From the NCBI RefSeq assembly GCF_045037415.1, contig NZ_CP173438.1: DNA of 64,000 bases, one strand, 5' to 3'. The DNA comes from Escherichia coli. Lineage in GTDB: Bacteria > Pseudomonadota > Gammaproteobacteria > Enterobacterales > Enterobacteriaceae. This document shows positions 44,402-54,999 of this stretch, one piece after another; position 1 is the first letter of the stretch, and each line of letters opens with the position of its first letter. The notes under the pieces were generated by a model, which worked only from the letters and a program-made list of their open reading frames with translations, had not been told where the DNA came from and did no database searches. Position numbers and translations under genes: made by a program.

Positions 44402-45391
44402 TTAGCCACCAATGTACGATAAGTTTTGCGTAATACCGGTGTTATTTTGATGCAGGAAATGGGTCTGTTTTTTCTCCCGCAGCGCCGCTGAAATACGCGC
44501 TTCCAGCGCCTGTTGCTGGGTATCGTTTTCCAGCAGATCGCGCAGGTTAACGCCGCCTTCACCAAACAGGCAGAGATGGAGTTTACCAATGGAGGAAACG
44601 CGCAGGCGGTTGCAAGTGGCGCAGAAATCTTTTTCATACGGCATGATAAGGCCAATCTCTCCGGCGTAATCCGGATGACAAAAGACTTGCGCGGGACCGT
44701 CGCTGCGTTGACGTAATTGGTGGATCCAGCCGCGACGCAGTAACTCGTCACGCAGAACCTGACCAGAGATGTGATGCTTACGGAAGAGCTCGCTGCCCTC
44801 GCCCGTTTCCATCAGTTCGATGAAACGCAGCTGGATGGGACGATGCTGGATCCAGTTCAGAAAGGTGTCGAGCTGGTGATGATTCACATCACGCATCAGC
44901 ACGGTATTGACTTTGACCTTCTCAAAACCGGCCTCAAATGCAGCATCGATTCCTGCCATGACCTGATTGAATTTATCCTGCCCGGTAATGGCATGAAACT
45001 GGCGAGCGTCAAGGCTATCAACGCTGACGTTGATGCCAGTAAGTCCAGCATCGCGCCAGTTCGCCACATCGCGCTCCAGACGGTAACCATTGGTGGTGAC
45101 CGCTATCTGGCGAATAGCGTCGTTTTCTCGCACAGCGGCGATGATATCGGTAAAGTCGCGGCGTAAAGATGGCTCACCACCTGTCAGACGGACTTTTTCG
45201 GTGCCCAGACTGGCGAAGGCGCGCGTAACCCGGCGAATTTCATCGACGGTCAGGAAGCCTTTATTGGTGACGCCGCTCGGCTTGTAACCATCCGGCAGGC
45301 AGTAGGTGCAACGAAAGTTACACACATCAGTAATCGACAGGCGCAAGTAGTAAAACTTACGCGCAAATGCATCAGTCAGTTGTGAAGCCAT
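44402..45391 (-). CDS. moaA: GTP 3',8-cyclase (radical SAM)
   Basis: 329 aa from [31 protein letters not shown]; radical-SAM CxxxCxxC. Confidence 0.93.
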
Positions 45392-45530
45392 GTACACCTT
45401 TCCAGATACGGGAGGCGAAGTCATTTCTTCCTTCGCCCTGGTGGCAATCTTTACGAGCATTGTCACGGCCAAAGCACCGTATCAGTTGACCCAGGTGCAG
45501 AGGCTAGAGTGTTTAGTGGTTAAGCCGATA
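45392..45530 (-). ncRNA. Moco riboswitch region in the moaA 5' leader
   Basis: structured leader directly upstream of moaA with hairpin ggcgaaggaagaaatgacttcgcc and RBS ggaaagg; assignment by position and recalled knowledge, not a covariance-model fit. Confidence 0.5.
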
Positions 45531-45566
45531 CTAGCGTGTAAATGAGATTTTTACCATCCACACTTT

Positions 45567-45590
45567 CGCTATGTAATCATGTATATAGCG
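45567..45590. promoter_or_regulatory. ModE-like palindromic operator upstream of moaA
   Basis: CGCTATGTA-atcatg-TATATAGCG inverted repeat containing TAYAT-type half sites. Confidence 0.4.
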
Positions 45591-45727
45591 TCATGATCGT
45601 GCTATTTCGCTACAGAATAAGGGAAAATGGCGGTTTTACTTTGATATACATCATCAGGGAGGCATAGCGTGCATCGTCCTTTAGAGGTAGAAGAAAATAG
45701 TTTGTATCCTCAATATTGGCAGGTTAA

Positions 45728-46696
<969 letters not shown>

Positions 46697-46697
46697 C

Positions 46698-46726
46698 ACG
46701 AAGCCGGAAGAATATTCCGGCTTCGT
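46698..46726. terminator. bidirectional terminator hairpin between ybhK and uvrB
   Basis: acgaagccggaagaatattccggcttcgt. Confidence 0.7.
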
Positions 46727-46733
46727 CATCTTG

Positions 46734-48755
46734 TCACGACGCGGCAATAAACAGCTCACGCAACTGATGCAACTGGTCACGAATTTGCGCCGCTTCTTCG
46801 AACTCCAGATTCTGCGCGTGTTGCATCATCAACCCTTCCAGTTCATGGATCTTCTGCTGTAACGCTTTAGGCGACATATCCATCGGCACATTATCCGGCT
46901 CAACAATCGGGCGCGATTTTCCTCTGCCCTTCGCTTTGGTTTTGGCAATGTTCTGCCCCAGCGCCAGGATATCGACCACTTTCTTGTTCAAGCCTTGCGG
47001 CGTAATGCCGTGTTCCTCGTTGTACTTCTGCTGTTTCTCGCGGCGACGTTCGGTTTCGCCAATCGCTTTCGCCATTGATGGGGTGATCTTATCGCCGTAG
47101 AGAATCGCTTTACCGTTAACGTTACGTGCCGCACGACCAATGGTCTGGATCAACGAACGTTCGGAACGCAGGAAGCCTTCTTTGTCAGCGTCGAGGATCG
47201 CCACCAGCGAAACCTCCGGCATATCCAGACCTTCGCGCAGTAAGTTGATCCCTACCAATACGTCGAACTCACCCAGACGCAAGTCGCGGATAATCTCCAT
47301 ACGTTCGACGGTATCGATATCTGAGTGAAGATAACGCACGCGCTCACCGTGTTCTTCGAGATATTCAGTGAGATCTTCCGCCATCCGCTTGGTCAGAGTT
47401 GTAACCAGTACGCGTTCGTTAATTGCCGCTCGCTGACGAATCTCCGATAGAAGATCATCCACCTGTGTCGCTACCGGACGCACTTCAATAATCGGGTCGA
47501 GTAAGCCTGTTGGACGCACAACCTGATCCACCACATCGCCACCGGATTTTTCCAGCTCGTAATTACCCGGCGTCGCCGAAACATAGATGGTTTGCGGCGC
47601 TAATGCTTCGAACTCTTCAAATTTCAGCGGGCGGTTATCCAGCGCTGATGGCAAGCGGAAGCCGTACTCCACCAGTGTCTCTTTACGCGCCCGGTCACCG
47701 CGATACATGCCGCCAATTTGTGGAATGGTGACGTGAGATTCATCGACCACCAGCAGCCCATCAGCAGGCAGGTAATCAAACAGCGTCGGCGGTGGCTCAC
47801 CCGGTCCACGACCGGAGAGGAAGCGCGAGTAGTTCTCAATCCCCGAACAGTAGCCTAGCTCGTTCATCATCTCCAGATCAAACTGGGTACGCTGGGTCAG
47901 CCGCTGCTCTTCCAGCAGTTTGTTGTTTTCCAATAGCACTTTACGTCTGGCGGCCAGCTCTTCTTTGATCTCCTCCATCGCCTGGACGATGCGCTCGCGT
48001 GGCGTGACGTAGTGCGTTTTCGGGTAGATGGTAAAACGTGGAATAGTGGAAACAATCTGCCCGGTCAGCGGGTCAAATAACGACAATCGTTCCACCTCCT
48101 CGTCAAACAGCTCCACGCGAAGTGCAATGTCATCCGATTCTGCCGGGAAGATATCAATCACCTCGCCACGAACACGGAAAGTACCACGCTGGAATGCTTG
48201 ATCATTACGGGCATATTGCAGCTCCGCCAGTCGGCGCAGGATCGCGCGCTGATCGATAATCATACCGACCGTGAGATGGAGCATCATCTTGAGATATAAA
48301 TCAGGATCGCCCAGACCATAAATCGCGGAAACAGACGCCACCACAACCACATCACGTCGCTCCAGCATCGCTTTGGTGGCGGATAAACGCATCTGTTCGA
48401 TATGTTCGTTTACCGAGGCATCTTTCTCAATAAAGGTGTCGGAACTCGGTACATAGGCCTCCGGCTGATAGTAGTCGTAGTAGGAGACGAAATATTCCAC
48501 CGCGTTTTCTGGGAAGAATTCTTTCATTTCGCCATACAGCTGGGCCGCCAGCGTTTTGTTGGGCGCAAGTACCATGGTTGGGCGCTGAAGGTCAGCAATG
48601 ACATTGGCAATGGTGAAGGTTTTCCCGGAGCCAGTCACGCCAAGTAACGTCTGGTGCGCCAGGCCATCTTCCAGCCCCTCTTCGAGACGTCGAATCGCCT
48701 CCGGCTGATCGCCAGAAGGTTTAAAAGCGGAATTCAGTTTGAACGGTTTACTCAT
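46734..48755 (-). CDS. uvrB: excinuclease ABC subunit B
   Basis: 673 aa; Walker [10 protein letters not shown]; helicase motifs; C-terminal UVR domain. Confidence 0.96.
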
Positions 48756-54848: not shown

Positions 54849-54999
54849 TCACTCTGCCAGATGGCGCAATGCCATCTGGTATCACTTAAAGGTATTAAAA
54901 ACAACTTTTTGTCTTTTTACCTTCCCGTTTCGCTCAAGTTAGTATAAAAAAGCAGGCTTCAACGGATTCATTTTTCTATTTCATAGCCCGGAGCAACCT

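Follow-up and report, generated by a model that had tools for sequence, protein, structure and literature searches.

The stretch of DNA analysed here, referred to as the window, comprises 64,000 nucleotides of Escherichia coli and contains the control region of the molybdenum-cofactor operon moaABCDE in the form of a strain-level allele of K-12. The features of the region are collected in Table 1. moaA, the aptamer in its leader, and its promoters all lie on the minus strand, and position 45392 is the last base of the leader, which corrects the orientation of the region in the initial annotation. The divergent intergenic region between moaA and yvcK/ybhK measures 397 bp. In a comparison of positions 45800-45377 with K-12 MG1655, only 2 of 424 bases in the region upstream of moaA differed, namely those at 45739 and 45523, both of which are outside the DNA sites and promoter hexamers described below. 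The difference at 45523 affects the unpaired first model position of the aptamer, which is a T here and an A in K-12. Many complete E. coli genomes match the 501 bp surrounding the moaA start with 100% identity, the segment being present in 5424 of 5426, and the RefSeq annotation under this match names 'riboswitch', 'moaA', and 'yvcK'. Nothing at this moaA locus is therefore new: it is the K-12 control region already described in Anderson 2000 and Regulski 2008, with one base changed at the unpaired first aptamer position. An open reading frame that begins at 45472 in frame with moaA was rejected, as it is an upstream TTG extension of a gene whose annotated start is the ATG.

Table 1. Features of the moaA control region, with positions given in the numbering of the window.
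Feature	Position	Strand	Remarks
moaA coding sequence	44402..45391	-	329 aa, GTP 3',8-cyclase; ATG at 45391-45389
moaB, moaC, moaD, moaE	after moaA, down to 42688	-	
Moco riboswitch aptamer (RF01055), P1-P5 including P3	45379..45523	-	Rfam covariance model
Shine-Dalgarno region AAGGUGUA	45393..45400	-	structure line of the Rfam alignment
GGA motifs, candidate CsrA contacts (two)	45431-45429 (in P4); 45403-45401 (just 5' of the Shine-Dalgarno region)	-	motif listing
S1 -10 hexamer TAGTAT	45528..45533	-	-12 to -7; conserved GCTAnnAT block
Weak -35-like TGGTAA of S1	45556-45551	-	
Putative ModE operator CGCTATATA-CATGAT-TACATAGCG (moaA strand)	45567..45590	.	-69 to -46, centre -57.5 relative to S1
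Distal promoter S2	45608..45619	-	predicted -10-like TATTCT at 45619-45614; start ~45608
FNR-like site TTGATatacATCAT	45641..45654	.	TTGAT-N4-ATCAT, 9/10 of TTGAT-N4-ATCAA
yvcK/ybhK	start 45789	+	divergent from moaA

On the basis of its position, the structured leader upstream of moaA had been expected to contain the Moco riboswitch, and a covariance-model search confirmed this expectation with a significant match inside the predicted leader. When the whole 64-kb window was searched against Rfam 15, RF01055 was the sole match above the gathering score; with 103.4 bits (gathering score 36, E 1.2e-24), it covered the model at its full length (positions 1-135 of 135), in agreement with a rescan of the sub-region. 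The interval that had originally been drawn around the regulatory elements, 45392-45620, does enclose the leader and the palindrome discussed below, but the aptamer runs past its lower bound to 45379, and its upper part, 45591-45620, corresponds to the -10 region and start of promoter S2 and not to the ModE site.

The first base of the aptamer precedes the S1 start by 2 nt, and its 3' end extends 13 nt into moaA. According to the Rfam alignment, the 3' strand of P1 (GGUGUA, 45398-45393) consists of the Shine-Dalgarno bases and pairs with 45513-45507, and the AUG of moaA sits in a small internal loop just after this strand. P3 is present (GUGAC...GCCAC), with an 11-nt loop insertion and one A-C mismatch flagged in the alignment, and P4 carries a GAAA tetraloop. 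The location, a leader 5' to a gene for Moco biosynthesis with the Shine-Dalgarno sequence within P1 as expression platform, is that expected of RF01055. No terminator-like element was found in the moaA leader, and the combination of a Shine-Dalgarno sequence inside P1 with a leader that lacks a terminator points to translational control.

The expression platform is thus sequestration of the Shine-Dalgarno sequence, in agreement with Regulski 2008 (PMC2408646), where the ribosome binding site was located within P1 and translational control was inferred from reporter and translational fusions, P1 mutants, and in-line probing of the K-12 sequence. For that sequence, it was also shown genetically that the 131-nt leader mediates repression by Moco (PMC2408646). 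The riboswitch studied there as '138 moaA' and '149 moaA' is the same locus, with an aptamer that is identical to ours except for 45523, and P1 with its embedded Shine-Dalgarno sequence, P3, and the GAAA tetraloop of P4 are all shared, so that there is no substantive difference between the two. When the leader alone was folded by minimum free energy, the result was unremarkable and not significant (z = -1.57), and the consensus structure was not reproduced, so that the structural assignment was based on the covariance model and on covariation. Such weak single-sequence folding is usual in multi-junction aptamers, which are stabilised by tertiary contacts and by their ligand.

For comparison, we used 80 moaA loci, one genome per species, 60 of which were scanned for RF01055. 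The motif was found directly upstream of moaA in 58 of these 60 gammaproteobacterial loci, and the 3' end of the match usually lay 3-14 nt inside the moaA coding sequence as called by tblastn. Covariation was assessed with 27 loci, using a MAFFT alignment that was independent of the model and a structure calculated by RNAalifold. Double compensatory changes were present in 13 of the 19 RNAalifold pairs, which belong to P2, P4, and a short P5; neither P1 nor P3 emerged when RNAalifold was applied to this 27-sequence alignment.

Some lineage-specific aspects of the leader were seen in the same set of loci. At the gathering score, RF01055 was absent from the loci of Rosenbergiella gaditana (L058) and Candidatus Enterovibrio escacola (L079), and the Rosenbergiella locus was also without a ModE-like site. 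In P2 (45485-45494 / 45475-45480), E. coli has CCUGGG...UACGG, whereas most orthologues have the classic 11-nt tetraloop receptor CCUAAG...UAUGG; the tetraloop receptor in P2 thus exists as a variant form in Escherichia and Citrobacter. Insertions of 20-70 nt that separate the -10/start region of S1 from the aptamer's 5' end were found in Citrobacter (L004-L006, at ~1330-1370), and in Kosakonia cowanii (L010), about 200 nt are inserted between the S1 region and the aptamer. The S1 leaders of these insertion-bearing genera contain additional 5' sequence absent from E. coli, and the insert of C. youngae holds an inverted repeat, GTTGAGTAGCAGGAGG...CTCTGTAACTCAAC.

It could be argued that this conserved and structured leader RNA falls short of a true riboswitch, with repression mediated by a protein or by some other factor that senses Moco status indirectly. 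No experiment has yet demonstrated that Moco itself binds the RNA (Regulski 2008, PMC2408646; PMC10845959), as the instability of Moco stood in the way of such an assay (PMC2408646). A 2024 paper still called the exact metabolite that is sensed unidentified (PMC10845959), and few follow-up studies on the Moco riboswitch are noted in a 2023 review. Furthermore, a protein does bind within the aptamer: CsrA has two binding sites there and activates translation of moaA (review PMC7652899). We regard the two GGA motifs in the leader as candidates for these reported CsrA sites. However, the leader has a widely conserved architecture of the riboswitch kind, in which a GNRA tetraloop is combined with a receptor and a conserved junction, and the presence of P3 correlates with a response to Moco, its absence with the tungsten cofactor (Regulski 2008, PMC2408646). 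Repression moreover needs the late genes of Moco biosynthesis, no protein factor was found in that study (PMC2408646), and the motif occurs in distant phyla, which makes a common protein partner less likely. We therefore consider an indirect sensor quite unlikely and continue with the Moco riboswitch.

In the literature, the region is numbered from the proximal start S1 (+1), and an amplicon from +1 to +145 ends in the fifth codon of moaA (PMC2408646). From this numbering and the primers, it follows that S1 corresponds to 45521, with the moaA ATG at +131. The distal start S2 was placed at -87 relative to S1 (Regulski 2008, Fig. 2 legend, PMC2408646), and the part of that paper that cites Anderson 2000 describes S2 as FNR-dependent. 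The S2 block TATTCTGTAGCGAAA is conserved across 15 genera. A simple sigma-70 scan gave no promoter match, which was to be expected and is uninformative because the promoters are activator-dependent. Between the -10 of S2 and the ModE site, the initial transcribed region (45591-45613, sense GTAGCGAAATAGCACGATCATGA) is unusually conserved across genera, with an invariant GAAA and a near-invariant GCA in the alignment (A1), and this conservation exceeds what a start site alone would need.

The FNR-like site has its centre ~39-41 bp upstream of S2. Sequences with one mismatch to TTGAT-N4-ATCAA occur 8 times in the window, compared to 2.3 expected, and the site at 45641-45654 is among them. This site is conserved, and the distance from its centre to that of the ModE site is 69 bp in the Enterobacteriaceae loci and 68 bp in locus L014; both its conservation and this constant spacing speak in favour of the candidate site. 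A TTGAT-N4-ATCAx dyad ~40 bp upstream of the start, at a spacing that is fixed in Enterobacteriaceae, is what the S2 promoter would share with FNR-dependent class II promoters; the moaA dyad deviates from these in that it agrees with the consensus at 9/10 positions and is centred, by literature numbering, at -39.5 instead of the canonical -41.5. The exact hexamers, the assignment of the FNR site, and the geometry of activation by ModE are what we infer from these data.

Between the FNR-like site and S1 lies the palindrome that the initial annotation had described as an element with 9-bp arms and TAYAT-like half-sites typical of ModE operators. Its position and the 6-nt gap between the arms, 45567-45575 (CGCTATGTA) and 45582-45590 (TATATAGCG), were correctly given, but the arms are imperfect and complementary at only 8 of 9 positions, with a G against an A at the seventh arm position. 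With the settings used, it is the sole inverted repeat in 45380-45800. One half-site is TATAT and the other is TACAT, and together they form TATAT-N7-TACAT; the pattern TATAT-N7-TAYAT occurs once in the 64 kb, compared to 0.05 expected, and was matched at least once in 5 of 100 shuffles.

The similarity to ModE sites, which had been noticed as a pattern, was borne out by comparison with characterised sequences. The site matches 15/16 core positions of the E. coli ModE consensus atCGnTATATA-N6-TATATAnCGat, in the form in which PMC545781 presents it after Studholme & Pau 2003. With the K-12 modA operator (NC_000913, CGTTATATTGTCGCCTACATAACG), the moaA site shares the frame CGnTATAT-N7-TAYATAnCG, including all 15 specified positions. 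A long pattern, CGNTATAT-N7-TAYATANCG, which was derived from the moaA site and the modA operator themselves, matched only the moaA site in the 64-kb window. The two operators differ in their arrangement: the modA site lies 20-43 nt upstream of the modA ATG and is a reported repressor site, whereas the moaA site is centred at -57.5, upstream of the -35 region of a molybdate-induced promoter, and would be an activator site. Anderson et al. are said to have found in 2000 that ModE binds adjacent to the -35 region of the proximal promoter, in agreement with the assignment made here. Activation of S1 by ModE-molybdate is stated in the section of Regulski 2008 (PMC2408646) that summarises Anderson et al. 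2000. The agreement of our site with the mapped ModE site is based on this secondary description, the consensus, the similarity to modA, conservation, and spacing. Taken at the sequence level, these aspects support the view that the palindrome at 45567-45590 is a ModE operator.

Conservation was analysed by searching the 700 nt upstream of moaA in all 80 loci (48 Enterobacterales and 32 others), using a score with a maximum of 15. A score of at least 13/15 was obtained in 44 of the 48 Enterobacterales, with 22 perfect sites, and in none of the 32 loci from Vibrionales, Aeromonadales, Pasteurellales, and Moritella, among which two Haemophilus loci reached 12. As controls, coding regions and shuffled upstream regions were scored; the best coding region reached 12 (1 of 96), and 13 was reached by 3 of 960 shuffled regions. 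Aligned across 15 enterobacterial genera, the sites showed near-invariant arms and six freely varying spacer columns. In the 32 loci in which the GCTAnnAT block was located, the centre of the site was 43-47 bp away from the -10 hexamer, with one exception of 54 bp. The distance from the site to the moaA ATG varied between 166 and 386 bp, owing to additional sequence inserted between the start site and P1.

As transcription from S2 covers the palindrome, and as its arms can give 8 pairs with a 6-nt loop, it was in principle conceivable that the palindrome is not a DNA site but an RNA hairpin in the S2 transcripts (+19 to +42) that affects stability, pausing, or folding of the aptamer. The substitutions in the 38 distinct orthologous sites argue strongly against this possibility. 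Where arm positions varied, all changes were transitions on one side (TATAT to TGTAT or TACAT), and the pairs 5/20 and 7/18 included no compensatory G-C pair and 8 A-C mismatches. Many of the one-sided changes result in G/T combinations that would still permit a G-U wobble, but one-sided transitions without compensation are characteristic of a pair of protein half-sites that degenerate independently, and not of a hairpin in RNA. In addition, the sequence of the arms is itself conserved among these sites, the site fits a DNA-binding consensus as well as the modA operator, a repressor site that belongs to another promoter, its spacing is fixed to the -10 of S1 and not to the aptamer, and no T-run follows the palindrome. 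A function as RNA hairpin is thus very improbable.

The fixed distance of 43-47 bp to the -10 of S1 also bears on the question of which protein would bind to the palindrome. The palindrome is positioned within the shared divergent intergenic region, and a regulator other than ModE, such as one that serves yvcK/ybhK, could in theory use it. However, the site is ~200 bp away from the yvcK start, it has the frame of the modA operator with 15/16 positions of the ModE consensus core, and the literature assigns activation by molybdate-ModE to S1 (PMC2408646). We therefore regard binding of a non-ModE regulator as extremely improbable and keep to the assignment as a putative ModE operator.

Together, these data make it highly probable that moaABCDE is controlled by FNR at S2, by ModE at S1, and by one leader whose Moco aptamer sequesters the Shine-Dalgarno sequence. 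Two promoters would then feed a single moaA leader. S2 (~45608) would depend on FNR via the site at 45641-45654 and would respond to anaerobiosis, which represents the need for the cofactor. S1 (45521), which has a poor -35 region, would be activated by a molybdate-bound ModE dimer at 45567-45590, molybdate representing the means of making the cofactor. The S1 leader, with a length of ~130 nt, is nearly coextensive with the Moco aptamer. At high levels of Moco or of a closely related derivative, the aptamer would fold, P1 would hide the Shine-Dalgarno sequence GGUGU beside the AUG, and translation of moaA would be blocked, and the reported binding of CsrA inside the aptamer would counteract this block. 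In this sense, the moaA locus is a textbook example of layered control, with oxygen sensed via FNR, molybdate via ModE, and the end product via the RNA leader, and with CsrA as an additional input. The locus also serves as a positive control, as a riboswitch and an operator that had been placed from the raw sequence survived model-based and comparative tests.

As the ModE site occupies +19 to +42 in the S2 transcript, molybdate-ModE might not only activate S1 but also act as a roadblock to transcription from S2. We consider this unlikely; if it were true, the roadblock would make the tandem promoters a switch and not an additive pair. As S2 transcripts include 87 extra 5' nt with the palindrome, they might fold differently from S1 transcripts or differ in their response to Moco or CsrA. 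The fixed 69-bp spacing between the FNR and ModE centres would fit some coupling of the two sites but is no proof of it.

A further block upstream of the FNR-like site (45671-45690, minus sense CTACCTCTAAAGGACGATGC) is conserved across 15 enterobacterial genera, and its core AAAAGACGATGC can also be discerned in Serratia, Yersinia, and Budvicia, where it takes the form AAAAxGCGA. Counted from S2, the block is located at about -63 to -82, and it precedes the yvcK/ybhK start by ~100-118 nt. This block could be the yvcK promoter or the site of a further regulator. A NarL-like heptamer in it (TACCTCT, 45689-45683) was rejected as a candidate, as it was present in 15 of 45 orthologous regions with ~0.4 per region expected by chance, and as it is the non-conserved part of the block.

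Two observations concern sequences outside the control region. In the Escherichia albertii locus (L003), positions 63-104 on the minus strand matched RF02751 (ES036/CssrF sRNA) at 43.1 bits, above the gathering score of 37.6. The equivalent position in the window is ~46788-46829, inside the 3' end of uvrB, and the E. coli window itself gave no RF02751 match at the gathering score and none at E<=1 in 45300-47000. About 9.5 kb from moaA, the window contains a single exact copy of GCTTTTTTATACTAA (54939-54953, minus strand), which we take to be the core of the phage lambda attB site, on the bio operon side of moaA. The presence of a single copy of this core suggests that the attachment site is unoccupied within the window.
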